Positions 2,454 to 57,073 of a stretch of 64,000 nt of DNA are shown here, one piece after another. Under the pieces are notes generated by a model, which saw only the letters and a program-made list of their open reading frames with translations, was not told the DNA's origin and made no database searches. Positions within the stretch are counted from its first letter, which is position 1. Each line of letters starts with the position of its first letter. This stretch comes from an uncultured Pseudomonadota bacterium. Its GTDB lineage: Bacteria; Pseudomonadota; Alphaproteobacteria; Rs-D84. The translations under genes were made by a program, and so were the position numbers. The stretch is taken from the NCBI GenBank assembly GCA_949283535.1, contig CASDTC010000003.1, positions 2,052-66,051 of the forward strand, in the 5' to 3' direction.

Positions 2454-2461
2454 AAAACAAT

Positions 2462-2491
2462 AAAAAAAGCCGGCAAATGCCGGCGTTTTTT
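2462..2491. terminator. bidirectional intrinsic terminator
   Basis: The stem is GCCGGC-AAAT-GCCGGC (2469-2484), flanked by an A-run and a T-run. Confidence 0.8.
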
Positions 2492-2493
2492 AT

Positions 2494-2577
2494 TCATAAT
2501 GCAATCATGTATCCACATGTCAGTATTGCAATAACCATTATTACAAACACAAATCTTTGTTTTGTTTTAAATGTCAT
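2494..2577 (-). CDS. possible 27-aa hydrophobic small protein (MTFKTKQRFVFVIMVIAILTCGYMIAL)
   Basis: A GGGGGGAT RBS lies 4 nt upstream of the ATG. The peptide has one predicted TM helix and ends directly at the 2462-2491 terminator. It is not in the ORF track because it is under 60 aa. Confidence 0.25.
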   Translation of the reverse strand: MTFKTKQRFVFVIMVIAILTCGYMIAL

Positions 2578-2808
2578 TTTATCCCCCCGTTTTTTACCAA
2601 CCCGTTGTTAAATTCGGACAACCGAAATTGTCGCCATTACTTAAATACCCCCTGTAATTGCGTGATTAATGCACATAACCCCTGGGTATTACTGCCAGCG
2701 ATTGATGCCGCATTGGCAGAATTTATAACAAACAATGACACAACAAAACCGCCGTTTAGATTCGGCAAAATAAAGGTATAAAAATATGCAGATTTCTGCT
2801 TTTTTATC

Positions 2809-11125: not shown

Positions 11126-13384
11126 ATGAACCTGCTTATCGTAGAATCACCATCAAAGGCAAAAACAATTGAAAAATACCTGGGGGCGGGGTGGCGTGTT
11201 ATCGCATCTGTTGGTCATGTACGGGATTTAGTTCCAGAAAATGGCAGTGTTGATACAGAACATGATTTTAAAATGCGCTGGCAAATTATGCCAGGTAAAG
11301 AAAAACAAATAAAATTAATCACAGATGAATTAAAAAAAGCAGATGCAGTGTATCTGGCATCGGACCCGGATCGCGAAGGTGAAGCAATTGCATGGCATAT
11401 TCTGGATATATTAAATGCCAAAAAAGCATTAAATGGTAAAAAAGTTTATCGTGTCGCATTTCATGAAATTACGAAAAAGGCTGTATTAGACGCCATCGCA
11501 CATCCGCGCGAAATTGATAAAAACCTGGTTGATGCATATTTAGTACGCCGCGCGTTGGATTATTTGATTGGATTTGGAATTTCACCATTGCTGTGGCGCC
11601 GTAATCTGGGGCGCAGTGCGGGTCGCGTACAATCTGTTGCAGTTAAATTGGTTGTTGATCGTGAACGCGAAATAGGGGCGTTTAAACCCGTTGAATATTG
11701 GTCGTTGGGTGCAAAATGCAATGTTAGTGCGGGCGAATTTAATGCAATGCTGGCAAAATTCGATGGTGAAAAAATTGAAAAAATGACAATTGAAAATCGC
11801 GCGCGCATGGATGAAATCCTGGGGAAAATTGGTGAACCAATTATTGATGCGCGTGTTATTGCAATTGATAAAAAGAAAACATCACGGCGCGCGGCGGCAC
11901 CATTTACAACCAGTACATTACAACAAGAAGCCGCACGGAAATTATACTTTTCATCGCGGCGCACAATGTCAACCGCGCAAAAGTTATATGAAGCAGGTTT
12001 AATAACATATATGCGTACAGATGCAACAAATCTGTCTGCCGATGCGGTTAATGAAATCCGCGGATTTATTGCACATACATACGGAAATCAATTTGTTCCA
12101 AAATCACCAAATGTATATGTTACAAAATCTAAAAATGCACAAGAAGCACATGAAGCAATTCGCCCAACACATTTCGATGTTGAAAAACCAAAATTATCTG
12201 GTGATGAAGAAAAACTGTATGATTTAATATGGAAACGCACAATTGCATGTCAAATGACAAATGCGGAATTTGACAGTGTTACCGCCGATATTGAAACACA
12301 AAATCATATTGCGGTATTTCATGCGGTTGGAACAACACGCACATTTGACGGTTTTATGCGTGTTTATACCGAAGATAAAGATGACGCATCCGATGATACG
12401 GAATCTAAATTACCACAATTAAATGTTGGTGATGATGTAAATATTTCTGAATTGATACCAGAACAACATTTTACACAACCACCTGCGCGCTATACAGAAG
12501 CATCACTGGTAAAAAAACTGGAAGAATTGGGTATCGGGCGACCATCAACATATGCAACAATTATGTCAACAATTGTTGACAGAAAATATGTTGAACAAGA
12601 TAAACAACGCCGCTTTCATCCAACCCCCGGTGGATGGGTGATTTCTGCATATTTATCAAAATATTTTGATGATTTGGTCGATGTTAATTTTACCGCAAAA
12701 ACAGAAGATACCCTGGACGATGTTTCAAATGGAAAGCGTGACAAATTGGACGCGCTGCGTAATTTCTGGACACCAACATCTGAAATGATTGATGGCGCAC
12801 GCGGTGTAAAAACCACAGAAATTATTGATGCAATTAATAATGTTATGCATAATCACTTGTTTCCGGACGGAAATGATAAATGCCCAAAGTGTGGTGGAAA
12901 ATTGGGAATAAAATTATCAAAATATGGTGCATTTATTGGTTGTGAAAATTATCCAAAATGTGATTATACACAAAAATTGGCGGATTTCGGCAATCCACAG
13001 CCGACAGATGAAAATACAAAATCAAAAAATATGCCAATTGATTTGGGTGATGGTATATCATTTCGTGTTGGACGGTTTGGTCCATATGTAACCGATGGCA
13101 AAAAAAATGTGGCGGCAAAACAATATACAGCAGATACAATAACACTGGACGCGGCGCGTGAATTGTTGGCGGGTGGCGGTAAAAAATCAGAGCCAATTGT
13201 AATTGGTGAAAATCCAGAAACAGGGAAAACAATATATTATTATCCAACTGGACGATATGGCGCATATATATCATCAAATCGTGTTAATGTTTCTGTATCT
13301 GCGCAACCTGATTTAGAAACAGCTATAAATTTAATAAATAATAAAAAGCCAACAAAAAGATTTAAAAGGACAACCAAGAAATAA
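11126..13384 (+). CDS. topA: DNA topoisomerase I
   Basis: It has a Toprim N-terminus (LIVESPSKAKTIEKYLG), an active-site Tyr region (GLITYMRTD) and one C4 zinc ribbon (CPKCGG..C..C). Confidence 0.92.
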   Translation: MNLLIVESPSKAKTIEKYLGAGWRVIASVGHVRDLVPENGSVDTEHDFKMRWQIMPGKEKQIKLITDELKKADAVYLASDPDREGEAIAWHILDILNAKKALNGKKVYRVAFHEITKKAVLDAIAHPREIDKNLVDAYLVRRALDYLIGFGISPLLWRRNLGRSAGRVQSVAVKLVVDREREIGAFKPVEYWSLGAKCNVSAGEFNAMLAKFDGEKIEKMTIENRARMDEILGKIGEPIIDARVIAIDKKKTSRRAAAPFTTSTLQQEAARKLYFSSRRTMSTAQKLYEAGLITYMRTDATNLSADAVNEIRGFIAHTYGNQFVPKSPNVYVTKSKNAQEAHEAIRPTHFDVEKPKLSGDEEKLYDLIWKRTIACQMTNAEFDSVTADIETQNHIAVFHAVGTTRTFDGFMRVYTEDKDDASDDTESKLPQLNVGDDVNISELIPEQHFTQPPARYTEASLVKKLEELGIGRPSTYATIMSTIVDRKYVEQDKQRRFHPTPGGWVISAYLSKYFDDLVDVNFTAKTEDTLDDVSNGKRDKLDALRNFWTPTSEMIDGARGVKTTEIIDAINNVMHNHLFPDGNDKCPKCGGKLGIKLSKYGAFIGCENYPKCDYTQKLADFGNPQPTDENTKSKNMPIDLGDGISFRVGRFGPYVTDGKKNVAAKQYTADTITLDAARELLAGGGKKSEPIVIGENPETGKTIYYYPTGRYGAYISSNRVNVSVSAQPDLETAINLINNKKPTKRFKRTTKK

Positions 13385-22717: not shown

Positions 22718-23035
22718 AGTTCAATCAGTAATTGAATTTTTATAATTATTCTTATTTTTGTATTGCGGGATTTTTATGCAGAATTCAACTATAACGGGAA
22801 TTGATTGCTTGTTTTATTGATGTTTGTTGTGATGTAGTGTTTTATTTGCTGTAATAAATAGAATTTTTATAAATGTTCAATCATAACAAGAAATTATGTT
22901 TAGTTTTGTTTGCGATTGGTCTTTTGGTTGTTTTTTGTCTGGTTTCTTTTGCTGGTTGATTGGCGGTGGATTTACGGCGTCACCCGGAAATTTTTGCCGG
23001 GGGCAAACCGGCGTACTGCCGTCCGCCTGGTTTCT

Positions 23036-23075
23036 GCGGTTGAACCACATTGCTTCTGTGGTTCAAATCCAACAC
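23036..23075. repeat. inverted repeat derived from the T-arm of the adjacent tRNA-fMet
   Basis: A 9-bp perfect hairpin pairs TTGAACCAC (23040-48) with GTGGTTCAA (23058-66). Segment 23055-23075, TCTGTGGTTCAAATCCAACAC, equals the tRNA sense sequence TCTGTGGTTCAAATCCACAC plus one inserted A. Confidence 0.7.
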
Positions 23076-23089
23076 AACACATGTAAAAC

Positions 23090-23118
23090 AAAAAATACAC
23101 CACAAGGGTGTATTTTTT
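23090..23118. terminator. bidirectional intrinsic terminator just 3' of tRNA-fMet
   Basis: The sequence is A6-TACACC-ACAAG-GGTGTA-T6. Confidence 0.75.
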
Positions 23119-23126
23119 ATTTTAAC

Positions 23127-23203
<77 letters not shown>

Positions 23204-36031: not shown

Positions 36032-36061
36032 AATAAAAAAAACTGGCATTGCCAGTTTTTT
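36032..36061. terminator. bidirectional intrinsic terminator
   Basis: The sequence is an A-run, ACTGGC-ATT-GCCAGT, then a T-run. Confidence 0.75.
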
Positions 36062-36620
36062 AAAAACTGTATGTAAATCCGGCGCCATAGAATGCGTATG
36101 AATAATTTTCAGTGGCGGTATTTGCATTTGAAAAATGTTGAACGAATATTTCAATACCCCAATTATCATTTATTCTGTATCCGCCAATTAATTTAAATTG
36201 AAACAGTAATTTTGCCCCCAGTCGTTCATTTTCTTTTACCTGTAAACCGGCACCAATACTGGTTGCAAAATACCAATTGTCGCCGTGTGCCAGGGCGATA
36301 TCTTCACTTAAAAATATCATTGGTATAGTATATCTATCCCAATCCCATCCATATTTACTGCCCAGTCCAATTGTTTGACCAATGTTTATTGATTGGCGTG
36401 CCGGTAATTTAAAGAATGTTGTCGGCTGGGAATACTGTAAATGCAGAAAATAAAATGGTACCAACTGTGATGGTGGTGGAACCAAAAAGCCACTGTTAAC
36501 ACCCTGGCCAATGTTCAGGGCAATTTGATTTTCGTTTTCACCCATGAATGGGTTTGCGTCTGCATATGCGGCGGATACCGCAAAAATTATGGTAAATAAA
36601 GATATCGCGAATTTTTTCAT
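36060..36620 (-). CDS. pagL: outer-membrane lipid A 3-O-deacylase (PagL-like acyloxyacyl hydrolase)
   Basis: It has a signal peptide, an 8-strand beta-barrel size, a terminal F, and an HFSNA motif like the PagL catalytic His/Ser segment. Confidence 0.55.
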   Translation of the reverse strand: MKKFAISLFTIIFAVSAAYADANPFMGENENQIALNIGQGVNSGFLVPPPSQLVPFYFLHLQYSQPTTFFKLPARQSINIGQTIGLGSKYGWDWDRYTIPMIFLSEDIALAHGDNWYFATSIGAGLQVKENERLGAKLLFQFKLIGGYRINDNWGIEIFVQHFSNANTATENYSYAFYGAGFTYSF

Positions 36621-36709: not shown

Positions 36710-37618
36710 TTAATACAGCCCTGTTTCATGTGCAACGGTCCACCATATATCTGAAAATATTGGGCGTGTGTTTTCTGGTCCCCATGGTTTCATCCAATTA
36801 GAATAATGTATTACAACCAGGTTATGATATAAATCATTGATTTCATATTGTGAATGCGTTTTAAATATCCATGCACCCAGCATAGTTTGAAAATTATACT
36901 TTAATGGTAAAAACAGTATTCGACCGCGCAGTGTATAATTTATTAAATCTTGGTCGGGATTATTGTATTTTTTTCTGTTTGCAACAGATATCCATTTTTC
37001 ATATATTTTTTCAGCACGAATTTGTTTTAAATTCATAACCAGAAATCCAGAATTTATATATCCATTTGTATAATCTGGGATGCCGGCTAAAACTTTATCA
37101 CCCATATCCAGGCGCGATAATTCAATTAAATCATCGCGGAATATTATGTCGATATCTGCATATATTATTTGGTCAATATTTGGTAATAATTTTGGCAATT
37201 GCAGGCGCCAAAATACGGCGGCGGGCCAACCACTGCGATATGCATTGTCAAAGTCATTATTTGCAGATAAAAATATTATGCGTGATTTTGTACCGTGGGT
37301 CATACTTGATACAATTTTGCGATGTTCTGGGGAAACGCCACTGTCAACAACACAATATATATCATAATCGCATCTGTTTTTTGATGCCAGAATCAGTGAT
37401 TTTATTGATACGCATGCCAGTTTATATCCATTGTCATTAAAGCAAAATGCAATGGGAATTCTTTTATTATATTTATGTAATGGTATATGTTGTCGTGGTG
37501 CGCCAATAATATGTTTAAATCTGATTTTATCACGGATTTGTCGACGCGCAGTGCGTGTTCGACCAATGATTGACAAGATTTTTGCAATAAATTCGCGTGT
37601 TTTCCAATTATTTCGCAT
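36710..37618 (-). CDS. glycosyltransferase family 8 (LPS-type retaining GT)
   Basis: It has the GT8 layout: ..IPIAFCFNDNGY.., DxD (YADIDIIF) and ..NSGFLVMNL.. ..DQDLINY... Confidence 0.75.
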   Translation of the reverse strand: MRNNWKTREFIAKILSIIGRTRTARRQIRDKIRFKHIIGAPRQHIPLHKYNKRIPIAFCFNDNGYKLACVSIKSLILASKNRCDYDIYCVVDSGVSPEHRKIVSSMTHGTKSRIIFLSANNDFDNAYRSGWPAAVFWRLQLPKLLPNIDQIIYADIDIIFRDDLIELSRLDMGDKVLAGIPDYTNGYINSGFLVMNLKQIRAEKIYEKWISVANRKKYNNPDQDLINYTLRGRILFLPLKYNFQTMLGAWIFKTHSQYEINDLYHNLVVIHYSNWMKPWGPENTRPIFSDIWWTVAHETGLY

Positions 37619-37840
37619 ACTTTAAACCCCTGGGTTGAATAAAACTAAAAAGCCGTCATTTTTATCAGACGGCAGGAGTTTCAACACTATTGTATGCGTA
37701 ATAGCGTGATGCTTTCGATATATGACATCACACTCCTGCCGATGTATAGCAGGAGGCATTTAACGTCTGCACAGACGCGCATACAATGGGTGTTGAATCC
37801 CAGTATCGGAACCCCCGATACAATTAACATGATAAAATTG
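37619..37840 (-). promoter_or_regulatory. structured 5' leader of the GT8 gene: four-way junction plus terminator/antiterminator (riboswitch-like)
   Basis: Given in plus coordinates. P1 pairs 37680-98 with 37778-97 (18 bp). Three internal hairpins lie at 37706-31, 37733-55 and 37764-77. The terminator pairs 37652-57 with 37668-73 and has a U5 run only in minus sense. The 10-nt segment 37670-79 is perfectly complementary to 37732-41. Confidence 0.55.
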
Positions 37841-37869
37841 TCGAAAATAAAAAGCAAATTATTTGTTGC

Positions 37870-37897
37870 TTGCAATTAGAATTTTCTTTGTTATAAT
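37870..37897 (+). promoter_or_regulatory. sigma70-type promoter of tRNA-Met(CAT)
   Basis: TTGCAA - 16 nt - TATAAT lies 10 nt upstream of the tRNA 5' end. Confidence 0.6.
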
Positions 37898-37907
37898 TCG
37901 GGGCATT

Positions 37908-37984: not shown

Positions 37985-38011
37985 AAATCAAACCGGGCGA
38001 ATGCCCGATTT
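37968..38011 (+). repeat. direct repeat copy 1 (tRNA 3' end plus its terminator)
   Basis: TCCCTCTCCCGCTACCAAAATCAAACCGGGCGAATGCCCGATTT matches 38141-38184 at 43 of 44 positions. Confidence 0.9.
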
Positions 38012-38140
38012 TATTTTGGTATTTGTGTATGTGGACTTGAACCCCCGGGAAAGGGGGTTCAATCAAACAAATAGGCGCGTGGGAACGCGCCGGTTGCGGA
38101 CAGCAAATTTGTGCAGATGCGTCCACGCCAGTGGACGAAT

Positions 38141-38184
38141 TCCCTCTCCCGCTACCAAAATTAAACCGGGCGAATGCCCGATTT
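38141..38184 (+). repeat. direct repeat copy 2 (orphan tRNA 3' end plus terminator)
   Basis: TCCCTCTCCCGCTACCAAAATTAAACCGGGCGAATGCCCGATTT has no complete tRNA body in front of it. Confidence 0.9.
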
Positions 38185-38194
38185 GATTTTTTTA

Positions 38195-40188: not shown

Positions 40189-40262
40189 GCCCTAATAGTC
40201 TAGTGGTAAAACACGTCCTTGGTAAGGACGAGTCGCAAGTCCGATTCTTGCTTAGGGCACCA
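40189..40262 (+). tRNA. tRNA-Thr (anticodon GGT), CCA encoded
   Basis: The acceptor is GCCCTAA/TTAGGGC-A-CCA and the anticodon arm is CGTCC-TTGGTAA-GGACG. The T-loop is atypical (TCCGATT) and the D-stem has one mismatch. Confidence 0.8.
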
Positions 40263-41778
40263 CTAAAGAATTCTCCCCCGAAAAACTGTTAAATAGCCCG
40301 AAAATCGGGGATAAATTTATAGTCCCAAATTTTTGTTCTTTGTTGTAGGAAATTTTGTCCCTAAAGCACAAATTTAGGACTACTTGTTTGATGTTGTAAT
40401 CTCCATTTTTCCATGCTTCAATGGGGCGTGAAATAAAATCAGATACATATCCGAACGCTTCATCAAATGGTATTAATTCAGGGGTAAAGTTATCAACTTC
40501 TGATTGTAGTGATAATTTCTCTGATTCCAGCGCATTAATTTTTGCGTTAAGTGCCTTTTTCATAACATCGTTTGCGCTGATATATGCGTCAGTGATTAAT
40601 GATTGTTCTTGTTCTATTGCAGATATGCGTTTCTTTTTTTCTTCGTTATTCGCACATGCTGCTTTATTGCGGTTTGAATATTCCCTTGTTGCTAATGCTC
40701 GTGCCAGCGCAATCAGATTCTCTTTCGGGGCAATTTTATTCAAAACCTCTGTTTCAAATTCTTCGTGCAAAATTTGCGGTGATACGTTGGCAAGTTTCTT
40801 TTTAGGGCAGTTCTTGTTTTGACATTGATAGTATGGATATTTGCCGCTTTTCGTCATACTAGCAGTTAACGGGCGACCACACTCGGGACAGGTTATAAAT
40901 CCCTTAAGAGGGAAGCGTTCATCATGTTTGTTGTATTTCTTGTGTCTAAGGCGATTTCGTCCATGTAGGCGGTCTTGGATTAAATCAAATGTCGCAGTAT
41001 CTATTAATGGTTCTATGTGCCATTTTTGTACTGGAATATCATATTTAGGATATGCGAATATACCCGTATATTTGCGGTCGGTTAAGATGCGTTTCACGAA
41101 ATCAAATATGTTTTTTGGGGTAGGGACGCCGGCTAAGTGCATTCTTTCTGTTAAAAAGTTTGCTACATCGGTCTGAGATACTAATTTTGCGCTGGCGAAT
41201 TGTTCTAGGGCTTCTTGTATTATCCCTGCCAATGGTTCTTGTCGTTTTAATTCTTTGCGTGCGCCAATTTTTACGAATTGGTATCCCTTTGGGGGTTGCG
41301 TAATCCAATACCCATTTCTGGCGGCTTCACGCATACCGGCAATAGTTCTTTCTCTGTTCTGGTCTGCGAATAACTCTGCCTGTGCCGCTTCTATTGTTGC
41401 CATGAATTTCCCGACAGGGCTTGTTTCTAAAATCCCTTTGCATGTTGCCAATCTGTGCCCGCATCGTTCCATAGATTTGCGTAATTTAATGAAATCTCCT
41501 GCGTTGCGTGCTAATCGGCTTATGTCATAAAATAATACCAGACGAGGTTCTTTTATTTTTGATAGATAATCTATCATTTCTGCAAGTTGATCACGTCCTT
41601 CGGTTTTAGTTCCTGTTTTTGCCGCATCTATATAAAATTTTTCGATTGTGCAGTTATTCCGTTGTGCCCAAGATTCGCATGCCCATTGTTGTGTATCCAG
41701 ACCGTTACCTTGGCTTACTTGCTTGTCGCTTGAAACCCTGTAATATGCAACTGCTGTATTAATTTTTATTTGTTCCAT
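40252..41778 (-). CDS. large serine recombinase (integrase)
   Basis: This 508-aa protein has a resolvase catalytic domain (AVAYYRVSSDKQ ... ISRLARN), a recombinase domain, a zinc ribbon (CPECG..(16)..YYQC....C) and a C-terminal coiled coil. The stop codon at 40252-54 lies inside tRNA-Thr. Confidence 0.88.
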   Translation of the reverse strand: MEQIKINTAVAYYRVSSDKQVSQGNGLDTQQWACESWAQRNNCTIEKFYIDAAKTGTKTEGRDQLAEMIDYLSKIKEPRLVLFYDISRLARNAGDFIKLRKSMERCGHRLATCKGILETSPVGKFMATIEAAQAELFADQNRERTIAGMREAARNGYWITQPPKGYQFVKIGARKELKRQEPLAGIIQEALEQFASAKLVSQTDVANFLTERMHLAGVPTPKNIFDFVKRILTDRKYTGIFAYPKYDIPVQKWHIEPLIDTATFDLIQDRLHGRNRLRHKKYNKHDERFPLKGFITCPECGRPLTASMTKSGKYPYYQCQNKNCPKKKLANVSPQILHEEFETEVLNKIAPKENLIALARALATREYSNRNKAACANNEEKKKRISAIEQEQSLITDAYISANDVMKKALNAKINALESEKLSLQSEVDNFTPELIPFDEAFGYVSDFISRPIEAWKNGDYNIKQVVLNLCFRDKISYNKEQKFGTINLSPIFGLFNSFSGENSLVVP

Positions 41779-41908
41779 TTTGTAAAACCTTATTAAAAAT
41801 AGTGTTAATTATGATTGTCAGATTATCTCTGCAACACTCTATTTCTTTATCGGTTAAACTAATGTTTTTGAGGTATTTGCGGCATTCTGCCACCGACATC
41901 GTCGCCAT
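41759..41908 (-). CDS. possible 49-aa ORF overlapping the recombinase start (MATMSVAECRKYLKNISLTDKEIECCRDNLTIIINTIFNKVLQNGTNKN)
   Basis: Hand translation shows the ORF ends 20 nt inside the recombinase gene in another frame. No RBS was recognised. Confidence 0.2.
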   Translation of the reverse strand: MATMSVAECRKYLKNISLTDKEIECCRDNLTIIINTIFNKVLQNGTNKN

Positions 41909-41981
41909 AGTGCCCACCAAAAGGTTTGCGTTTTGGCTCCGGTGCTTCCGATAATCAAAACATTGTTTCCTTTCAACATGT

Positions 41982-42806
41982 CTAGTCTGTTATTGCTTTG
42001 TTCTTTTTTTGTGTTTTTCCTTGTAAGTAGCTAACTTTACCGTCTTTTATGGTTAGATTAATTTGCCCGTATCCGATTTTGTTTATAAGATTATGTAAAC
42101 TTTCTGTATCTTTTGGTTTGCTTGCAAAGCTTTTTTCTACCAGGTTTATTCGATTTTTATTTGTTTTTACGGTTATTTCTCTTTTATCGTCTGCGAGACG
42201 GATGTTTTTTATAAGGTTCCATTCACTGTTATATAGCCAAAAAGTATCTTCATCCCATATTTGCATTGTTTTGTCTTTTAGAATTTCTTTTTCTACTTTA
42301 TTAAAGTTAATATAAATATAAGAAGCGGGAATGTTATTGGTTGTTCTATTTAGTGCGATATCTCGTTCTGTAATCACGCCTGTGTTTCCATTGCTATCTA
42401 TCAGAAGATATGTATTACCGTCTTCTATGCTGGTTTTTGAACGCAATAAAGCAAATTCAAGTCTGGTTATTGCGTTTGGGTTATTAGATTCTTGTGCAGG
42501 TAGATAAAGAGAGTTTTTTACTTGTTTAAGTTTTTCAATCGATAGACCAAATTTTCTTAGTTCTATAAGTATTGTCATTAATATTATGTCCATTGTAGAA
42601 AACTTGCGCCAACCTTGTGGTTTTTTGCGTTCGTCATCTAGAATTCCAGAACTTGTCCAACTGTTTATTATTCTAAAAGATAGTGGAGTTTGATTAGCGG
42701 ATTTGTTTCTTTCTCGAAGAGATTGTAAAATTTTGCAGTTGTTTAATTCTACGGCTTGTTGAATTAAATCCAGGTCTTTTTGTGTCCCATCTGTATAGTT
42801 GAACAT
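41982..42806 (-). CDS. MerR/excisionase-like HTH protein with uncharacterised C-terminal domain
   Basis: The start was trimmed to MFNYTDG. The segment FRIINSWTSSGILDDERKKPQGWRKFSTMDIILMTILIELRKFGLSIEKLK follows the MerR-type HTH pattern (yr.l..We..Gll.p.r...g.R.ys..dl..l..i..L...G.sl..ik). Confidence 0.5.
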   Translation of the reverse strand: MFNYTDGTQKDLDLIQQAVELNNCKILQSLRERNKSANQTPLSFRIINSWTSSGILDDERKKPQGWRKFSTMDIILMTILIELRKFGLSIEKLKQVKNSLYLPAQESNNPNAITRLEFALLRSKTSIEDGNTYLLIDSNGNTGVITERDIALNRTTNNIPASYIYINFNKVEKEILKDKTMQIWDEDTFWLYNSEWNLIKNIRLADDKREITVKTNKNRINLVEKSFASKPKDTESLHNLINKIGYGQINLTIKDGKVSYLQGKTQKKNKAITD

Positions 42807-42976
42807 TTTTGTATAACCTTTGTCCTTTACAAAAATATACAACAATGTATAATATTATCAAGTATTTTATACATATTTGTATATTTTTTATAAAAACAAA
42901 ATAAATACATTTTTACAGCCAATTTTTTTGAGAATTCTGCCGTTTTTTGTAATTATTTTATAATAGATTTTCTGTT

Positions 42977-44215
42977 TTAAAATTTATAATCAATCTTGAT
43001 AAGTCCTGTGTGGCTATGAAAATTTTGTCGTGCGCTTAATGAATATTCTATAGACAAACTTATTCCGTTATTGAAAGTTGTTTGTGCTGAAAGACCTGTT
43101 TCTATACCAAATGGATCCCATGATTTAAATGATGCGTTTGCAAAAATATCATGTGCATTATAATAAATTGTTATTTCATCGTTATCATATAAAATATCGT
43201 ATAAAATATTAAATTTCATCTTTATGGAAATGGGGGTTAGATTTATGGTGTGTTTGAGCCCGGTTGTCCATGTTAAAAAATGATTAGAGTCGAAAGATAT
43301 TTCATTACCAATAGAATCGTTATAAGAAACAGGTAAGAGATTCAGATAGCGCAAACCTGTTTCAGCTATAATATTTTGTGGCGTTTTATAGCCCATATTT
43401 ATAACAGTTCCGAAATTTGATGCACTGAAATTATCGATGTTTTTATACTGTGAAAATCCATAATTAAATAATAAACTTAGATACACATTATTAAAATTAT
43501 ACATTGAATATAAATGGATATTATGTATTGAATCATCTTGCGTGAGATTATTTTTATATGTTGTTTCTCCATCACTAAAAGAGTAACTAAAACCCAATAA
43601 CAGGTTGTTTTTAATGTGTTTGTCCATACCTATATGTAAACCGAAAGCAGAACTTGTGAAGTCAGAATAACTATTTTGCTTAAACCAATTATAAGATTCT
43701 GTTGCCCATAATGTTAAGTTGGAATGATAGGGCTCTTGGAATCTGTTATCTATTTGGTTTATATTTGAATAAAATATATTTCTTGTTTTGGCAGAAGTAG
43801 TAAAAACATAGTTTTCTTTGAGTTTTTCAGAAAAATACTCTTTTGCTTGTTTTCGAAGAGATTCTAATATGTAGTCTGCTTCCCAATAGAAGTAGTTTAT
43901 ACTAGGGTTTGTTGCGATGTCTTTCAACGTAACGTTTTTATATTTAAAGGTCGTTGGAGAGTATGGTGCTATATATTCTCCTCCTGAACCATCTGCAATC
44001 CATTCGGTCAATGTTATATCTAAATCCAAGGTTTCTAAATTATAGAAAAAATATGTATCAGATTGCATTGTTGCTGTTCCTGCAGGAACATGTCCAGGAT
44101 CTGCCAAAGAGTATACGGTATCATTGTATGCAGATATTATTGGGTTAATTGCATATGCTGAATTATAAAAATACAATGTAATAAATGTGAACAAGATAAT
44201 ATTTGTGTTTTTCAT
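42977..44215 (-). CDS. autotransporter-like outer-membrane beta-barrel protein
   Basis: The start was trimmed to MKNTNIILF.. (signal peptide ..NSAYA). The C-terminal 250 aa show alternating beta-strand patterns and end in ..IDYKF. A short N-terminal passenger of about 150 aa precedes the barrel. Confidence 0.55.
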   Translation of the reverse strand: MKNTNIILFTFITLYFYNSAYAINPIISAYNDTVYSLADPGHVPAGTATMQSDTYFFYNLETLDLDITLTEWIADGSGGEYIAPYSPTTFKYKNVTLKDIATNPSINYFYWEADYILESLRKQAKEYFSEKLKENYVFTTSAKTRNIFYSNINQIDNRFQEPYHSNLTLWATESYNWFKQNSYSDFTSSAFGLHIGMDKHIKNNLLLGFSYSFSDGETTYKNNLTQDDSIHNIHLYSMYNFNNVYLSLLFNYGFSQYKNIDNFSASNFGTVINMGYKTPQNIIAETGLRYLNLLPVSYNDSIGNEISFDSNHFLTWTTGLKHTINLTPISIKMKFNILYDILYDNDEITIYYNAHDIFANASFKSWDPFGIETGLSAQTTFNNGISLSIEYSLSARQNFHSHTGLIKIDYKF

Positions 44216-44487
44216 TTTTTTCCTTTTATGCAAAAAGACCGCCACGGGAATGACGGTCGGGCATTTTCAAAATCATAACGTGAATGATCCCATGGATTTC
44301 GGCGAACCTGTTGTATAGCCACAGATACCCGACCACAAGGTCAGGCAATAAAAGTGTGAAACACCATTTTTGCCGTAAAATCGGATAACGATGTTTTCAC
44401 ACCGCACGTTATGGGTTTTGAAAGCCCCCGAACCCATATCCCTATGGATTCGGAGTTATTTTAATATATGTGTGTAATCATTGCAAA
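44216..44487 (-). promoter_or_regulatory. structured leader/attenuator upstream of the OMP gene
   Basis: In minus sense the terminator is GACCGTCA-TTCCCG-TGGCGGTC plus U5 (plus 44232-58), 17 nt before the ATG. Mutually exclusive pairings link 44328-34 with 44339-45, or 44328-34 with 44255-61. G-U pairs form only in minus sense. Confidence 0.5.
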
Positions 44488-45090
44488 TTAAAATAATTTC
44501 GTTATTTCAGATATGATTGGCGCAAAAAATGTCATATGTGCTGCTGCGGACTGTATAAAGTTATTATATTTATCCATAAACCTTGAGCGGTTATTTGCAG
44601 AAATCGCTATTTTCATTTCTTCAATGCTGTTCAGGATGTTTTGTACAACTTCTTTGCTATCCGGCACTTGGGCGGCGATTGCTTTCATTTTATCAAAAAT
44701 TTCCAATTGGTCGTGATTTATGATATTTGTGACCGAATTATCCACTGAGCCAAAATTTACACGCGACCCATCCCCAGAAACTGAAATATTTACCCCACTT
44801 GCGTTTATTGTATCTTTCGTACGAGTGCGGTTTAACCCATTCACTTCGTCGTATCCACTTTCCGTAAGAATGTTAGGGGCAGTGATAAATCCTTTGCTTA
44901 CCATATCGTTCCAAATTTCATCAAAGTTATCTTTAATGTGTTGGCATTGTTCAAGTATCAAAGCACGTCGGATTGGTCGAGTTGGGATATACATGGTACC
45001 GTCTTGTCCGCGTGACGCAAACTTCCGCAACAAGTCATATAAAAAGGCTCTCGTATCGTCAAGTGCATTTTGTTTTGCTATATCGGTCAT
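44488..45090 (-). CDS. hypothetical protein (200 aa), partner of the AbiTii-like gene
   Basis: It starts 4 nt after the upstream gene. The central Asn/Ser-rich segment GVNISVSGDGSRVNFGSVDNSVTNI echoes the C-terminal tail of the upstream protein (GSTVNIASTDNSII). Confidence 0.55.
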   Translation of the reverse strand: MTDIAKQNALDDTRAFLYDLLRKFASRGQDGTMYIPTRPIRRALILEQCQHIKDNFDEIWNDMVSKGFITAPNILTESGYDEVNGLNRTRTKDTINASGVNISVSGDGSRVNFGSVDNSVTNIINHDQLEIFDKMKAIAAQVPDSKEVVQNILNSIEEMKIAISANNRSRFMDKYNNFIQSAAAHMTFFAPIISEITKLF

Positions 45091-45094
45091 TGTA

Positions 45095-45727
45095 TTATCC
45101 TTTGTTTATTATTGAATTGTCGGTTGAAGCTATATTTACAGTTGAGCCAGCACTGGCAATTATACTTATGCTGGAAATTTCAGGGTTCTTTTGTGCTTTT
45201 GATATTTCCTCGTTGGTAAAAGATAAGTTTTCCCCTAAAATTCCATTTTCTTCTAGTTTTAATGCCCATTCTAAAAGATTGTGCCGCACCGTTCCAAGAA
45301 TTGCCGAAATTGCATATCTTGTATAGAATACTGCCATTTGCATGGGTATTGTAAGCATATTATTGGCGACTGACGACAAAGGGGACATTAAGGTATTGTT
45401 TTCCTTACCAGCAGATAAAGACGCCTCTAATTCCGCAATTGAACTTGTCAAGTGTACAGTACTTAGAGTTTTTTCTGTTTCAAAGTCGGGGCATTGAATA
45501 TAAATCCACCCACGCATAGGGTTAAACGCTTTTAATACACCATGTATTTCTCGGTATTCAGGTAGATTATTTGCGTCGGGATATCCCTTAATTTCATTTT
45601 CTATGAATTCCCTTGATTCTGATATTTTTAATTTTCGTGCAATAAAGTAGGCTTTATTTAACGCGCTTAACAGACTAGCATTTGGGTCCATTAATTCTTT
45701 TTGCAAATCTATAACGATACTTGCCAT
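45095..45727 (-). CDS. AbiTii-like abortive-infection family protein
   Basis: N-terminal LLSALNKAYFIARKLKISESREFIENEIKGYPDANNLPEYREIHG and later VRHNLLEWALKLEENGILGENLSF fit the AbiTii domain pattern as recalled (L.KA..lA.kL.......W...EL.GY......P.YR). Confidence 0.55.
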   Translation of the reverse strand: MASIVIDLQKELMDPNASLLSALNKAYFIARKLKISESREFIENEIKGYPDANNLPEYREIHGVLKAFNPMRGWIYIQCPDFETEKTLSTVHLTSSIAELEASLSAGKENNTLMSPLSSVANNMLTIPMQMAVFYTRYAISAILGTVRHNLLEWALKLEENGILGENLSFTNEEISKAQKNPEISSISIIASAGSTVNIASTDNSIINKG

Positions 45728-46026
45728 AAGTTATACCTTCTCTTTTTGGTAGAGGTTATATCACAAAACCTGTCAAATCAAGTTTATATCTTTAAATATT
45801 CCTGTTCTTTCATGTGGTTAGTATAGGAACTATCTGCGCTGGGAGACAAATCCGCCGTTTGCGACGCGCAATATTAGCGATTTTGGGCGGCTTTTTTAAC
45901 CGTATTTTGACGATGTTAAAATGGTGGTTTATGGCCTTGCTAACCGCCTTGCTACTTTTTTGATTTATTGATTAATAAATCAGTGTGCCAGATACGAAAT
46001 AATAACGTCGTTTTTTACGTGGTTAT

Positions 46027-46956
46027 TTATTCTATTGGCAATATTTCCATTAAAGTATATGAGGTTTTTTCACTTGTATTATTTATAGTTATTTTCTTAG
46101 CTAATTTAAAATTATAGGCTTTGCCAGTGGTTTGTTCGTGGGCTAGATTTGCGTCTATTGTACCAGTTATTACTTCATCTTCGTTATCTTCGTCTAATTT
46201 TATATTAAAAGACGAAGTTGCATAATTAAACCCTTGCAATATGCCGTCTATCAGAATTTCTTCTTCAAATATTTGTGGTTCTGTCGGTTCTAGGGCTTTT
46301 TTGACTCTGTTTAATCTAGACAACTCAACATGTTTTGATACTTCATTGTCCGTGGATTTGTCCCATTTTATTTCTGCTGATATATTATTTTCTATGTGAC
46401 TATTGACCCATTCTTTCAATGCTTTAAAAGTCCCTAATCCGTATTTAGAAATCAACTCTTTTATTGACTCAGGGCTCTCTGTATTAATCATTTTTAAAGT
46501 TTCTTTCATAGCAAAATCAATATCAGAGCCAAATAAATTGTCTTTTTGAGCTTTTAGCGTCAATGCGATTCCAATAGAACCAGAATAAGTATAGGCGAAA
46601 CCTAATAGTGTCTCTTCTTTTGCCTTTTTTGTGATTCTGACATTATTCTTTGGTTTCTTTAATGTAATGGAATCATACACCAAAGAAAACAGATTTTGAA
46701 AACTATCTATAATGTCAGTTATCTGGGAAAATCCAACCCGTTCATTTACACAAAGCCTATAATCTAAAACAGATTCTTCCATTTTCGCTGCTTCCTCTGC
46801 AAAAGCAGCCTTTAATTCCTCACCAAACTTTTCTACGGACTTCAGAGAAATAGCCAATCCAAAATCGTTCGGATTTTTTGCCAATTCTGATTGCAGTCTT
46901 GTGATTTCCGCATTGTTATCAAATAATCTGGATTGGATTTCCAGTAAAGTAGACAT
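46027..46956 (-). CDS. hypothetical protein (309 aa), downstream partner of the nucleotidyltransferase
   Basis: It shares one nucleotide with the stop of the upstream gene (ATG at 46954-56). The N-terminus is coiled-coil-like and no known domain was recognised. Confidence 0.55.
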   Translation of the reverse strand: MSTLLEIQSRLFDNNAEITRLQSELAKNPNDFGLAISLKSVEKFGEELKAAFAEEAAKMEESVLDYRLCVNERVGFSQITDIIDSFQNLFSLVYDSITLKKPKNNVRITKKAKEETLLGFAYTYSGSIGIALTLKAQKDNLFGSDIDFAMKETLKMINTESPESIKELISKYGLGTFKALKEWVNSHIENNISAEIKWDKSTDNEVSKHVELSRLNRVKKALEPTEPQIFEEEILIDGILQGFNYATSSFNIKLDEDNEDEVITGTIDANLAHEQTTGKAYNFKLAKKITINNTSEKTSYTLMEILPIE

Positions 46957-47438
46957 TACTTGCCTCCATTTATTTGAATTACAGCTAAGCCTTTTAAGGT
47001 TTTGTCTCTATTAAAACAAAATAACCCTCTCCAATAAGCCATACCATCTATATCGGTTGTTGGTCGTGCATACACATCACAATGGCATCTGCATTTTAAA
47101 TCATCGTGGTTAGATACACACATATATAAAAAATTATTTATACAACTAACTTTTTCAGCAGAATATGGTTTGTTTGGGTCAAATTCTACCAAGACGTCTA
47201 TGTCTTCAGGATTTTCTTTTTCTGTGATAAAACTGCCGTCCACCCACACATCACACATCAGACCCGTGTTGGTCAACGGTATGATAAAATTTTCCACAAA
47301 ACTATCAAAAATGGTAGAACGTGTTGCCGAATTTGGAAAATTTTCCACGCACAAGGTCTTAACTTCCTCCAAAGTTTTGTTATGAAACCCTGCGGGCAAT
47401 AATCCCGGAAACGACAACTTATCAGGCATTTCTTTCAA
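46956..47438 (-). CDS. minimal pol-beta-fold nucleotidyltransferase (DUF6932-like)
   Basis: LLPAGFHNKTLEEV ... DVWVDGSFITEKENPEDIDVLV ... KGLAVIQI matches the remembered DUF6932 pattern (LPPG.H..t..Ef ... y.DGSFvT.K..P.D.D ... kGii.i.l), including the GS...D.D NTase catalytic motif. Confidence 0.6.
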   Translation of the reverse strand: MKEMPDKLSFPGLLPAGFHNKTLEEVKTLCVENFPNSATRSTIFDSFVENFIIPLTNTGLMCDVWVDGSFITEKENPEDIDVLVEFDPNKPYSAEKVSCINNFLYMCVSNHDDLKCRCHCDVYARPTTDIDGMAYWRGLFCFNRDKTLKGLAVIQINGGK

Positions 47439-47452
47439 TCTCTCTTTGCTAT

Positions 47453-47481
47453 ATTATACCACAAAATTGGTTAAATTACAA
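47453..47481 (-). promoter_or_regulatory. strong sigma70-type promoter of the NTase operon
   Basis: In minus sense it reads TTGTAA - 17 nt - TATAAT, with an extended -10 TG. Confidence 0.5.
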
Positions 47482-47564
47482 TTTGTTTACACAGAATAGA
47501 GGAAAAAAACGATAAGTCAAATTATTTCAAGATGTTATTGATAAGTATATTCCTATATACATTC

Positions 47565-47828
47565 TTATTCTTGTCCGGTGTTTAGTGGGTTGAAAGCCCG
47601 CTTATCTGTAAAACCGCCATTCACAACGTGCAGGATTTCACAAATCCCGCTTTCCTTAATAATCCTTGCATTTCGCATTATTTCATTATAAAATCTGTTC
47701 CAGTTGTCCCAACTTTTATGCAGTAGGGGCACCAGAAAATTTTTTGGGCATGCGTGTGATGATATGACTGACAACCATGGAATGCGCAAAACCCAGTAAA
47801 AGTTATAAGACAGGGTGGCACCGCGCAA
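47565..47828 (-). CDS. 87-aa ORF of doubtful status (possible gene remnant at the island edge)
   Basis: No RBS or family was recognised. The composition is closer to core sequence, and the ORF spans the tRNA-3'-like 11-mer at 47724-34. Confidence 0.2.
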   Translation of the reverse strand: MRGATLSYNFYWVLRIPWLSVISSHACPKNFLVPLLHKSWDNWNRFYNEIMRNARIIKESGICEILHVVNGGFTDKRAFNPLNTGQE

Positions 47829-55157: not shown

Positions 55158-55296
55158 AGAAAACAACCGTGCAAGTATCTGCATATAATTACTGCATCCC
55201 AGGGCTTTGCTAAGTCCCGAACCCACATCCCTATGGATTCAGCAGAATTCATATCATGCAGTGATTGAAATAAAAAACCGCATTTTGCGGTTTTTT
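55158..55296 (+). ncRNA. candidate small RNA with its own promoter and terminator
   Basis: TTAACA (55122-27) - 18 nt - TATAAT (55146-51) lies upstream. Hairpins include GGTTG-CAGAAAA-CAACC and CTGCAT...ATGCAG. It carries the 27-nt motif at 55216-42, shared with 44427-53, and ends at terminator 55272-96. Confidence 0.35.
55272..55296. terminator. bidirectional intrinsic terminator
   Basis: The sequence is A6-ACCGC-ATTTT-GCGGT-T6, and it overlaps the stop of the ftsA-like gene. Confidence 0.75.
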
Positions 55297-57073
55297 ATTG
55301 TTCAGAATGTTTTAATAAACTTTGTACCGCCAATGGAAAATCATTACTGCGTGCCAGGTATGAACCACTGACCAATAAATCGGCGCCAGCAGTCCAACAT
55401 TTTTGTGCGGTTTCAGCATTTATTCCGCCATCAACAGATATTAAGTATTTTAGCCCATATTTTTTGCGTGTCGCCGCCAATACTGATATTTTATGCAGGC
55501 ATGTGTCGTCAAATTCTTGACCCGCCGCCCCAGGTGGTACAGTCATTATCATTATTTCGTCAATTTCACGCAAAATCGGCTTTAATATTTCTACAGATGA
55601 TTCTGGGTTTAATGCAACGCCCGCGCGTTTTGATGCTGCGCGTACCGAACGAATTGCTGCACGCAGTCCAGATGTATTTGTTGACATTATAACCGTGTCT
55701 GCACCCGCAGAAATTGCGTCATTCGCCCAGACGGTTGGACTTTCCGTCATTAAATGTACATGCAGATGCGCGTTTGTATGTGCGCGTATGTATTTTAATT
55801 CCGCAATACTGCCGGCAATGCGGTCAACATAAAATCCATCCATTATATCGACATGTATCATTGATATGCCGCCCGCCCGGAATAATGAATATGTTTCCGG
55901 ACTTTTCATATTAAAGCATAATGTGCTGGGCATTATGGGTATAAATTTTTTTTGTGGGTGCCGACGCCGGCGGAATATAGACATTATGCGATTACTGAAC
56001 TGTTCAACGCGGGCGTGGCGCATTGCATATTTGTTGCGATGTTCTGATTCTAGATTCCATATGTATGTTGATAATGCACGAACAGATGCGTCAGAATGAT
56101 TGTTCTTTACAGGTATTGAAAAAACATTTTCAACAAATTCATCAATTCCATCAATTTCAGCACCACCGCCAGATATCATTATTGATGATGGTTTATATTT
56201 TGAAAATGCCGCATTTGATGCGTCCTTGATACGGGCGCATATATCGACCATATGTGGTAATATAATGTCATTTACATCGGCGCGTGAAAAATCGTATGCC
56301 GTGTCTGCCGGGGTAAATCTGTCCATTTCGCGTGGCATTAATCCGGCGACATTGCGTTTTATTCGGTCGGCATCATCAAAATCAATATTTAATTTTTTTG
56401 ATATATCATTTGTTATATCTGTCCCACCAACAGATATTTTTGCATGCCATACGGGACCACGATCCATCCAAATAGATGCGCTGGTAAATTTTGCGCCAAA
56501 ATCAATAAACATTGTTGTTTGTTTTTTGGGGCGAAATACCGAATTTTGCAAAAATTGTGGGTCGTAAAATGCGTCTGGTTGAATATGGGCATGGCGCAGA
56601 TTGGACCCCAGTTCATCGATTTGTGCATATGAATAAAATATTACACCAAATGCAGATATTAATTGTCGGTCTGTATGACCAATTGGTGAAAACATATTTC
56701 GTGCGGTTGGTGTATCGTATCGCAGTGGAAATATATGCATTGGGAAATATCCGTCTGGTGGGGTAATTTGTGAAATTTGCGTTCGAACATCTGATACAGT
56801 TATTTTATGTTCACCATGCCAAATCGTATTTTTCGCAATCATTTCAAATTTTGATTGCCCAAAATCACCCGTAATATATGCAGAATCAAAATGCGATCCG
56901 ATTTGTTGTTCCAGTTCGTCAATTACAGACTTTAATGCAAATACTGTATCAAAACTGTCAACGGCATGCATTGCAGATTGAACAATTCGACCGCCCAGTA
57001 CATGATGTGCAATGCCGCGTACGCAGTGCGTGCCAACATCCAGACATAAAAAAGTTGAATCCCCCAGGTTCAT
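55295..57073 (-). CDS. ftsA: FtsA-like actin-fold protein fused in frame to a ribulose-phosphate 3-epimerase-like TIM barrel
   Basis: The N-terminal ~375 aa are FtsA-like (LCLDVGTHCVRG, IDFGAKFTS, ISGGGAEIDGIDEFVENVFSIPV). The C-terminal ~215 aa are Rpe-like (IMPSTLCFNM, HVDIMDGFYV, HLMTE, ISVDGGIN). There is no stop between the two parts. Confidence 0.7.
   Translation of the reverse strand: MNLGDSTFLCLDVGTHCVRGIAHHVLGGRIVQSAMHAVDSFDTVFALKSVIDELEQQIGSHFDSAYITGDFGQSKFEMIAKNTIWHGEHKITVSDVRTQISQITPPDGYFPMHIFPLRYDTPTARNMFSPIGHTDRQLISAFGVIFYSYAQIDELGSNLRHAHIQPDAFYDPQFLQNSVFRPKKQTTMFIDFGAKFTSASIWMDRGPVWHAKISVGGTDITNDISKKLNIDFDDADRIKRNVAGLMPREMDRFTPADTAYDFSRADVNDIILPHMVDICARIKDASNAAFSKYKPSSIMISGGGAEIDGIDEFVENVFSIPVKNNHSDASVRALSTYIWNLESEHRNKYAMRHARVEQFSNRIMSIFRRRRHPQKKFIPIMPSTLCFNMKSPETYSLFRAGGISMIHVDIMDGFYVDRIAGSIAELKYIRAHTNAHLHVHLMTESPTVWANDAISAGADTVIMSTNTSGLRAAIRSVRAASKRAGVALNPESSVEILKPILREIDEIMIMTVPPGAAGQEFDDTCLHKISVLAATRKKYGLKYLISVDGGINAETAQKCWTAGADLLVSGSYLARSNDFPLAVQSLLKHSEQ

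Follow-up and report, generated by a model that had tools for sequence, protein, structure and literature searches.

What governs transcription into the GT8 glycosyltransferase gene on the minus strand of the 64,000-nucleotide (nt) stretch of contig CASDTC010000003.1 analyzed here (the window), and what kind of RNA lies in front of it? An original prediction, made from the sequence alone, had placed upstream of this gene a riboswitch-like four-way junction whose fold would be incompatible with an antiterminator, and had suggested that it might be an unclassified cis-regulator of envelope glycosylation. The analysis presented here argues that this RNA represents a conserved family of cis-regulatory terminator/antiterminator leaders, a reading to which we assign a probability of about 0.78. 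The leader is most likely a cis-acting transcription-attenuation switch of the GT8-PagL operon (a lipopolysaccharide (LPS)-modification operon) and belongs, with several paralogues, to a small leader family. That its effector is a small ligand is a narrower claim, to which we give somewhat less than even odds.

The leader, roughly 200 nt long, has an architecture in which a predicted σ70-type promoter is followed by a 5' hairpin (P0), a four-way junction (P1-P4), and an intrinsic terminator (Table 1). The 18-base pair (bp) closing helix that had been predicted consists of segments of 8 bp (37680-37687/37790-37797) and 10 bp (37689-37698/37778-37787) on the minus strand, both of them 100% complementary and separated by a CC/A internal loop; GGGA/UCCU adds another 4 bp, bringing P1 to 22 bp. 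The three inner hairpins (CGUCU/AGACG, CUCCUGC/GCAGGAG, and GUGAUG/CAUCAC) are all present in both sequence and fold, as are the GCCGUC...GACGGC hairpin with its run of five U's, the AGGGG Shine-Dalgarno (SD) sequence, and the GT8 start at 37618. The 5' boundary requires revision: a start at 37840, as originally proposed, takes in the -10 box of the promoter, and the conserved P0 hairpin (37821-37803) had been overlooked. The minimum free energy (MFE) of the leader is -74.8 kcal/mol, compared with -52.2 +/- 4.4 kcal/mol for 200 dinucleotide shuffles (z = -5.12), none of which was as good. (A generic promoter/terminator scanner missed both the leader promoter, because its -35 rule requires at least 4 of 6 matches, and the terminator, because the loop is longer than 8 nt.)

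The switching element is a strand directly 3' of P1, here called the tail. As predicted, the 10-nt tail (ACUCCUGCCG) overlaps the 5' arm of the terminator and is perfectly complementary to CGGCAGGAGU, which lies in the 3' strand of P3. In every member of the family, the strand just 3' of P1 has two partners: the 5' extension of P1 together with the 3' arm of the terminator, or the 3' strand of P3. Of all upstream sequence, the P3 3' strand offers the tail its best match in types A (the GT8 leader), C, and B, with perfect pairing over 10, 9, and 8 nt, respectively (P<=0.002 for each, using shuffled tails; for type A, 0 of 2000 shuffled tails match), and the tail:P3-3' duplexes of types D and D' have 8-9 bp. 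Between leader types, 3-4 positions change together on the tail and the P3 3' strand, and the pairing that extends P1 covaries as well (GGGA/UCCU, GGGC/GCCC, GGGG/CCCC, and GAGGU/ACCUC). Because both pairings vary in a compensated manner between types, both must be maintained by selection, and such dual pairing reads as the signature of a two-state switch. Thus, the proposed exclusivity of terminator and antiterminator is supported by compensated tail:P3-3' complementarity across five leader types, all of which have the mutually exclusive structures coupled to a terminator that characterize a riboswitch expression platform. Among the 13 orthologues described below, the tail:P3-3' helix is 96% paired. 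A further duplication that had been noted in the platform, that of CGTCTG, is present in this genome but is not conserved in the other 11 species, and is probably a coincidence.

The conservation and covariation that the original prediction had called for were found in 13 distinct orthologous versions of the leader and 4 diverged paralogues, in which 14-18 pairs are compensated. The orthologous versions come from uncultured Rs-D84/"Ca. Enterousia"-like Alphaproteobacteria, the GT8 homologues likewise stem from uncultured Alphaproteobacteria, and all sequences are from metagenome-assembled genomes (MAGs) or metagenome contigs. Using an unbiased MAFFT alignment, RNAalifold predicts 52 pairs, 12 of them compensated, and recovers P0, P1, P2, P4, and the terminator. 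In a structure-aware alignment of the 13 sequences, with loops padded with N, 95.9% of cells are paired versus 28-52% when the partners are slid by 1-3 columns (pairing percentages that are inflated, because such alignments are fitted to the model), and the 14 compensated pairs reach a level seen in 0 of 500 shuffles. P0 is 100% paired in all 13 sequences, with 5 of its 7 pairs compensated, and its loop has the form G(G/U)(G/A)UU, which is also present in paralogue L011b. Compensated pairs among the orthologues are also found in P2 (1), P4 (3), and the terminator stem (5 of 8). P1 is invariant except for one position at which U-A becomes U.G in five sequences; this change and several invariant G.U pairs are valid solely in the GT8 sense, and a covariance model scores 119-155 bits on the GT8-sense strand versus 18-28 bits on the opposite strand. 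When paralogue L011b is added, 18 of 51 pairs are compensated, including 6 in P1 and 2 in P3. The terminator hairpin is present in all 13 versions, with a stem of 6-10 bp followed by a U-rich run of 4-6 U's (weaker and interrupted in L017, L021, and L026); its stem covaries at 5-6 pairs, and the hairpin has the GC-rich stem-loop and adjoining U-run of an intrinsic (Rho-independent) terminator. Taken together, these alignments reveal a conserved, structured 5' leader with covarying helices (12-18 compensated pairs, 94-96% of cells paired), and the compensatory changes and strand-specific G.U pairs point to selection acting on RNA.

The placement of the leader argues that it functions in cis. 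In the orthologues, its position is constant, between an antisense tRNA-Met and the GT8-PagL operon and extending from the promoter to the GT8 SD, and GT8 loci at only 53-69% identity carry it at the identical position. When 185,579 species-representative genomes were scanned for exact 20-mers, 8 proved to have the element, each in a single copy and at this same locus; the MAGs with the element in this exact-match scan include 'Candidatus Enterousia avistercoris' and a closed chromosome of 958,618 bp. (The order Rs-D84 consists of animal-gut bacteria whose genomes measure about 0.75-1.0 Mb (PMC12306168).) In the closest syntenic relatives, L004-L009 (GT8 71% identical), the whole structured element, about 185 nt, is missing; the antisense tRNA-Met and the promoter region, like the GT8 start, are conserved. 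In L004, the promoter directly abuts the GT8 SD; the element therefore lies within the GT8 transcription unit. There are two such leader-less lineages, the L004 and L030 groups, in which exactly the leader has been removed and the promoter and SD have been kept, and because both nest among leader-bearing lineages on a neighbour-joining tree of GT8, the absences represent deletions. The predicted promoter, TTG(C/A)TT-N17-TAT(C/T)AT, recurs in 13 of 14 loci, where its distance from the tRNA is constant; its hexamers and exact 17-nt spacing are kept as the spacer sequence drifts. Given that the leader always lies between this promoter and the GT8 SD, that its terminator is 25-35 nt (U-run to ATG) from the start codon in GT8 leaders, and that the deletions spare promoter and SD, the leader is assigned a cis-acting role. 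The leader promoter (TTGCTT-17-TATCAT; minus strand, 37857-37829) and that of tRNA-Met (TTGCAA-16-TATAAT; plus strand, 37870-37897) are arranged back to back and divergently within 37829-37897, and these divergent promoters account for the strong conservation of the whole tRNA-to-leader spacer.

The family also has members that precede other genes. A covariance model built from the leader core (R1) matches minus-strand positions 2458-2601 of L011 with 33.9 bits (E about 3e-6 multi-locus, 1e-8 locally), and a second model in which the L011 copy was added (R2), run unfiltered over the window, matches 44258-44427 on the minus strand with 17.2 bits (E 0.022 window-wide, 1e-4 locally); these E-values are rough, as calibration was shortened. 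The latter locus, designated type D, lies ahead of an autotransporter gene. The region 44236-44500 has a fold z of -7.08 and the same architecture as the GT8 leader, with helices of 6-11 bp that are fully paired save for the terminator stem (8 of 9 pairs). The listed GTG start (44245) of the 422-amino acid (aa) autotransporter open reading frame (ORF) falls within the type D terminator stem; translation almost certainly begins instead at ATG 44215, from which the predicted product has a signal-peptide-like beginning (MKNTNIILF...). The L011 member (2458-2660, minus strand) shares this architecture (fold z of -5.1), has a separate putative promoter, TTGAAT-17-TATAAT, that was read by eye, and lies directly ahead of a gene whose product, a 184-aa Cys-rich (Ephrin_rec_like) protein, resembles a signal peptide at its N-terminus. 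Another member, in L026 (4985-5275, minus strand), precedes a gene for a protein of about 100 aa with an apparent C-terminal membrane helix. Finally, in L032 (1000-1203) and L033 (1-90) a leader is found ahead of a GT8 orthologue (56% identity) in another genomic context, with no tRNA-Met; the L032 leader has the same architecture and switch logic, an unrelated sequence, and a fold z of -5.07, and its 3' part is conserved in a second species. All helices are kept in every family member, with different sequences.

A scan of the window for the design itself, independent of sequence (a tail 7-mer with an exact complement 30-110 nt upstream in a local hairpin, and a terminator beginning in the tail), yielded exactly two loci, the GT8 leader and type D, whereas 30 shuffled windows yielded two loci in total. 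Weak covariance-model matches at 11196-11361, 55219-55370, and 23010-23165 are regarded as spurious; they overlap a tRNA or have neither P4 nor the tail logic, and are absent from the design scan. The occurrence of paralogues ahead of surface genes suggests a regulon. Consequently, the original proposal of a cis-regulator of envelope glycosylation holds in that the RNA is a cis leader of the GT8-PagL operon, but not in its restriction to glycosylation, as members also precede autotransporter and other envelope/secreted-protein genes.

As the original prediction had surmised, no known RNA family accounts for the leader. A search of the whole window with Rfam 15 at gathering threshold returned three tRNAs and nothing else; the region 37560-37900 gave zero matches at E<=10, and the region 44180-44520 gave two chance-level matches far under threshold. 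Membership of the Rfam 15 families yybP-ykoY, c-di-GMP-I/II, ZTP, SAM-II/V, cobalamin, M-box, T-box, 6S, SRP, tmRNA, Y RNA/YrlA, and EAR was not supported. A metagenome scan with the invariant 3' block produced a single chance match, inside an unrelated coding sequence (L029), and searches of the literature on the Rs-D84 lineage and on similar motifs turned up no description of the leader. The leaders, which match no catalogued RNA family, probably constitute a new riboswitch-like attenuator family.

These features suggest how the switch would work. Transcription would begin at the conserved σ70-type promoter, and the RNA would fold into P0 and the four-way junction, leaving the 9-10-nt tail directly 3' of P1 with two mutually exclusive fates. 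In the OFF state, P3 would be a local hairpin, the 5' half of the tail would extend P1 (UCCU:GGGA), and its 3' half (GCC...) would form the base of the terminator, such that RNA polymerase would halt about 30 nt ahead of the start codon. In the ON state, the tail would instead pair with the P3 3' strand to generate a pseudoknot-type antiterminator stacked on P1; the terminator would lose 3-4 bp from its base, and transcription would proceed into the gene. The tail resembles an anti-SD as well, and in most versions it could pair with the real SD (the MFE structure of L032 has this pairing). In the OFF state, such pairing could occur in any read-through RNA, which suggests that translational control may form a second layer. 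The conserved, unpaired nucleotides of J2/3, J4/1, the CC/A internal loop, and the P4 loop AUAUA..GAAA are candidates for the effector site that would tip the balance, and the effector would most likely be a small molecule or ion, making the leader a riboswitch. We infer the transcript ends (with a terminated product of roughly 175 nt), the regulation of termination, the nature of the effector, and the state that it would favour.

Three features favour direct sensing of a small effector: the conserved domain is large and complex, it contains unpaired nucleotides that are conserved, and the family is spread in multiple copies in the manner of a regulon. We tentatively propose a new riboswitch class whose aptamer would comprise the four-way junction, the CC/A loop, and the AUAUA..GAAA loop, and which would switch a surface-remodelling regulon of LPS glycosyltransferase, lipid A deacylase, autotransporter, and secreted proteins in gut Alphaproteobacteria that have reduced genomes and few protein regulators; the switch would be portable on an integrative island. 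Under this tentative proposal, candidate signals include nucleotide sugars or other envelope precursors, second messengers, and divalent ions.

The switch could instead be a bistable attenuator that is read by a trans-acting macromolecule (an antiterminator or terminator protein, a tRNA, or another RNA) through the invariant P1 or the loops. At GT8 identities of just 53-69%, the orthologues have exactly the same P1, junction strands, and tail (100% identity), a constraint that base pairing alone does not need and that would suit sequence-specific recognition by a protein, and the several paralogues per genome ahead of functionally related envelope genes would suit the regulon of such a factor. 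Nevertheless, we consider this unlikely. The P1 sequences are wholly different among paralogues, which rules out a single protein that reads P1 by sequence; the element has no linked gene for a candidate RNA-binding protein, and the conserved regulator beside it is an ArsR-type DNA-binding protein; and the known targets of protein-dependent antitermination (ribonucleic antiterminator (RAT) sites of BglG-SacY, and those of PyrR, TRAP, and HutP) are short hairpins rather than four-way junctions of about 150 nt. J2/3 contains an AUG that might have matched the neighbouring tRNA-Met as a specifier codon, but L017 has ACG at this position, and L012, L025, and L027 have ACA or ACG; given this lack of conservation and the absence of an Rfam T-box match, we reject a T-box/tRNA-Met link. 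Attenuation mediated by a ribosome on a leader peptide is a scarcely credible reading. P3 contains AGGAG, and the ATG 4 nt on opens a 13-codon ORF (M[S/P]YIE..ALLRIQ*) that ends at a UAG in the P1 3' strand; this arrangement of an SD-like element, an ATG/GTG 4 nt later, and a conserved in-frame UAG is found in 10 of 13 orthologues. The start codon has been lost from the remaining 3, however (from L017, and from L012 and L027 by a change of ATG to CUG that is compensatory in the stem), the variable residues follow RNA compensations and not amino-acid conservation, and indels in L021, L026, and L028 disrupt a longer overlapping frame. In addition, the SD-like sequence and start codon would be buried in P3 and P4 in both states, and paralogues D and B have no SD-like P3. 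Thus, a conserved, translatable short ORF, as a leader-peptide attenuator would have, was not found.

The element forms a complete promoter-to-terminator unit that is very highly conserved in sequence among orthologues, and the OFF state would release exactly the type of RNA expected of an independent small RNA of about 175 nt that has its own promoter and terminator, has a trans or housekeeping role, and is read through into GT8 only incidentally. This possibility is quite improbable, since the 25-35 nt between U-run and ATG leave no room for a separate GT8 promoter, the same promoter drives GT8 directly in the deletion lineages, and each paralogue is fused to the SD and ATG of a different gene; furthermore, both pairings of the tail have been kept in evolution, which would be pointless for a simple small-RNA terminator, and a housekeeping role is at odds with two lineages that do without the element. 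The idea that the locus is a DNA-level inverted repeat, such as a miniature inverted-repeat transposable element (MITE), a repetitive extragenic palindrome (REP), or a Correia-like element, has a negligible chance of being correct. The 18-bp, terminal-looking inverted repeats, the clean absence of about 185 nt from L004-L009, and the presence of GCCGTCTGA, which resembles a DNA uptake sequence (DUS), 3 times in the window versus 0.13 expected, would all be compatible with it. Yet each of 8 genomes has a single copy of the element, at the orthologous site in every case, and there is no target-site duplication; the element is present in lineages more distant than the leader-less one, with the absences nesting within the presences, and it has strand-specific G.U pairs and compensatory changes. 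A MITE, REP, or Correia reading is further refuted by a BLAST search that detected no second near-identical copy in the window and by the paralogues, which are highly diverged and fused to genes, and the 39% GC content, the lack of an over-represented word, and the mere 3 copies rule out a neisserial DUS or Correia-like element based on GCCGTCTGA.

Several observations, including the inflated pairing percentages already mentioned, weigh against a family of terminator/antiterminator leaders. The 13 orthologues represent only about 7 independent lineages (plus the 4 paralogue types), and the 22-bp P1 is invariant among them, which is unusual for the P1 of a riboswitch and hints that the sequence itself is recognized, possibly by a protein. 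There is no compensatory change in the antiterminator helix among the 13 orthologues, and single mismatches weaken this helix in L012 and L025. The covariation of the antiterminator comes from the comparison of paralogues, among them the L032 leader, which neither R1 nor R2 detects and which may be either a very distant homologue or a convergent, and possibly analogous, structure. Lastly, the similar energies of the competing states, at about -12.8 kcal/mol for the P3 hairpin plus about -10.5 kcal/mol for the terminator versus about -19 to -20 kcal/mol for the tail:P3-3' duplex, speak for a switch, but the latter values are for the duplex only and leave out pseudoknot geometry.

Table 1. Predicted elements of the GT8 leader (type A) and of the type D leader in the window, neighbouring genes, and the switch strands of each leader type
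Feature	Position	Strand	Details
Predicted σ70-type promoter, GT8 leader	37829-37857	minus	-35 TTGCTT 37857-37852; 17-nt spacer; -10 TATCAT 37834-37829
Predicted transcription start site, GT8 leader	about 37825-37821	minus	
P0, 5' hairpin	37821-37803	minus	GUAUCGG-GGGUU-CCGAUAC; 7 bp
Four-way junction core, helices P1-P4	37674-37801	minus	MFE and centroid folds
P1 5' strand	37801-37778	minus	GGGA+UUCAACAC+[CC]+AUUGUAUGCG
P1 3' strand	37698-37674	minus	CGCAUACAAU+[A]+GUGUUGAA+[AC]+UCCU
P2	37777-37764	minus	
P3	37755-37733	minus	
P4	37734-37703	minus	conserved loop CAUAUAUCGAAA
Switch strand (tail)	37679-37670	minus	ACUCCUGCCG; 10 nt; overlaps terminator 5' arm
P3 3' strand pairing with tail	37741-37732	minus	CGGCAGGAGU
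Intrinsic terminator	37673-37647	minus	GCCGUC 37673-37668; 10-nt loop; GACGGC 37657-37652; U5 37651-37647
SD; GT8 ATG	37631-37627; 37618-37616	minus	SD AGGGG; ORF list
GT8 glycosyltransferase gene	36710-37618	minus	302 aa; Pfam PF01501, E 9.8e-33
PagL-like lipid A deacylase gene, downstream of GT8	36060-36620		Pfam PF09411, E 3.5e-7
Predicted promoter, type D leader	44458-44486	minus	TTGCAA 44486-44481; 17 nt; TAAAAT 44463-44458; read from sequence
Type D leader (second family member), ahead of autotransporter gene	44232-44453	minus	model R2, fold
Type D P0	44453-44428	minus	
Type D P1 5' strand; 3' strand	44427-44405; 44282-44259	minus	
Type D P2 (long)	44403-44353	minus	
Type D P3; P4	44345-44328; 44324-44290	minus	
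Type D tail	44262-44255	minus	GCCCGACC; complementary to GGUCGGGU, 44334-44327
Type D terminator	44259-44236	minus	followed by U5, 44236-44232
Autotransporter beta-domain gene	42977-44224	minus	Pfam PF03797, E 1.5e-11; SD AGGA 44224-44221; ATG 44215
Switch strands, type A			tail ACUCCUGCCG; P3 3' strand CGGCAGGAGU
Switch strands, type C			tail CCUCCAACC; P3 3' strand GGUUGGAGG
Switch strands, type D			tail GCCCGACC; P3 3' strand GGUCGGGU
Switch strands, type D'			tail CCCCGACC; P3 3' strand GGUCGGGG
Switch strands, type B			tail UCCCGACC; P3 3' strand GGUCGGGA

Other features of the region were observed in the course of this work. The type D leader and its autotransporter gene, together with several genes without Pfam matches, are the cargo of a 7.5-kb integrative island (40263-47726) at the 3' end of tRNA-Thr (40189-40262). 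The alignment with L004 stops at 40262 and resumes at 47727, an 8-nt repeat, GGGCACCA, is present at both island junctions, and a gene for a large serine recombinase (40252-41778, minus strand) overlaps the 3' end of tRNA-Thr. In the GT8 protein, the Pfam domain begins at residue 55 and is preceded by a basic N-terminal extension of about 50 aa (codons 1-50, 37469-37618); the length of this extension is constant among homologues (98-100% query coverage). Between an ArsR-like gene and tRNA-Met there is a conserved, structured block of about 130 nt (about 38013-38150, within 37985-38190), flanked by a 45-nt direct repeat that consists of the tRNA-Met terminator hairpin and the last 17 nt of the tRNA. 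The block is found in 9 of 12 loci examined (it is absent from L022, L025, and L028), with a tandem duplicate in L027 and L014. RNAalifold predicts 30 pairs, 9 of them compensated, and neither Rfam nor ARAGORN provides an identity; a tmRNA reading was rejected, having no ARAGORN or Rfam support and a putative tag frame that is not conserved. The block could be another structured RNA of no known class, or else a scar left by integration and now under selection.

If confirmed, the leaders would constitute a new candidate riboswitch/attenuator class with a three-way design of anti-antiterminator, antiterminator pseudoknot, and terminator, from a lineage (Rs-D84/'Ca. Enterousia', with genomes under 1 Mb) whose gene regulation is essentially undescribed. 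The regulated genes would all be surface-acting, specifying LPS core or lipid A modification, an autotransporter, and secreted/membrane proteins, and the effector would reveal a signal for envelope remodelling in host-associated, probably epibiotic or parasitic, bacteria. The family would also illustrate how paralogous copies can provide covariation that near-invariant orthologues cannot.

Comparison with known systems indicates which parts of this design are familiar. The Salmonella mgtA leader, an RNA that can itself be a Mg2+ sensor, and PhoPQ-pagL offer a functional analogy, in that PagL and LPS remodelling are switched by an environmental or host signal; however, the sequence and structure of mgtA are unrelated to those of the leader, there is no sign of Mg2+ sensing, and Salmonella PagL is under the control of a two-component system rather than an RNA leader. 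As in regulons of the cyclic di-GMP (c-di-GMP)-I riboswitch (GEMM-I), several copies per genome lie ahead of surface/envelope genes (adhesins, autotransporters, polysaccharide genes). GEMM-I consists of two adjacent hairpins with a tetraloop-receptor contact, an architecture that differs from this one; there is no Rfam match, and nothing in the leader ties the motif to c-di-GMP. The Mn2+ riboswitch yybP-ykoY shares a four-way junction followed by an intrinsic terminator, and an association with membrane-related genes. Its switching strand is the 3' strand of P1, whereas here P1 is very stable and switching would occur at P3 and the tail; the pattern of conserved nucleotides also differs, and there is no Rfam match at E<=10. 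Like trp- and T-box-type attenuators, the leader has four segments, with P3-5'(1) pairing with P3-3'(2), the tail (3) with the terminator 3' arm (4), and 2:3 as the alternative, but it has no conserved leader peptide, T-box sequence, or specifier logic, and its 2:3 helix would be a pseudoknot across an intact P1 instead of a nested alternative. The logic is also that of ZTP (pfl) and similar pseudoknot-gated riboswitches, in which a long-range pseudoknot, whose 3' strand shares nucleotides with the terminator 5' arm, blocks termination, and a leader of about 100-200 nt lies directly upstream of the regulated gene. In contrast to ZTP, to which the leader has no match in sequence or structure in Rfam, the core here is a four-way junction closed by a 22-bp helix, and the pseudoknot partner doubles as the 3' strand of the local hairpin P3, which would thereby serve as the anti-antiterminator.

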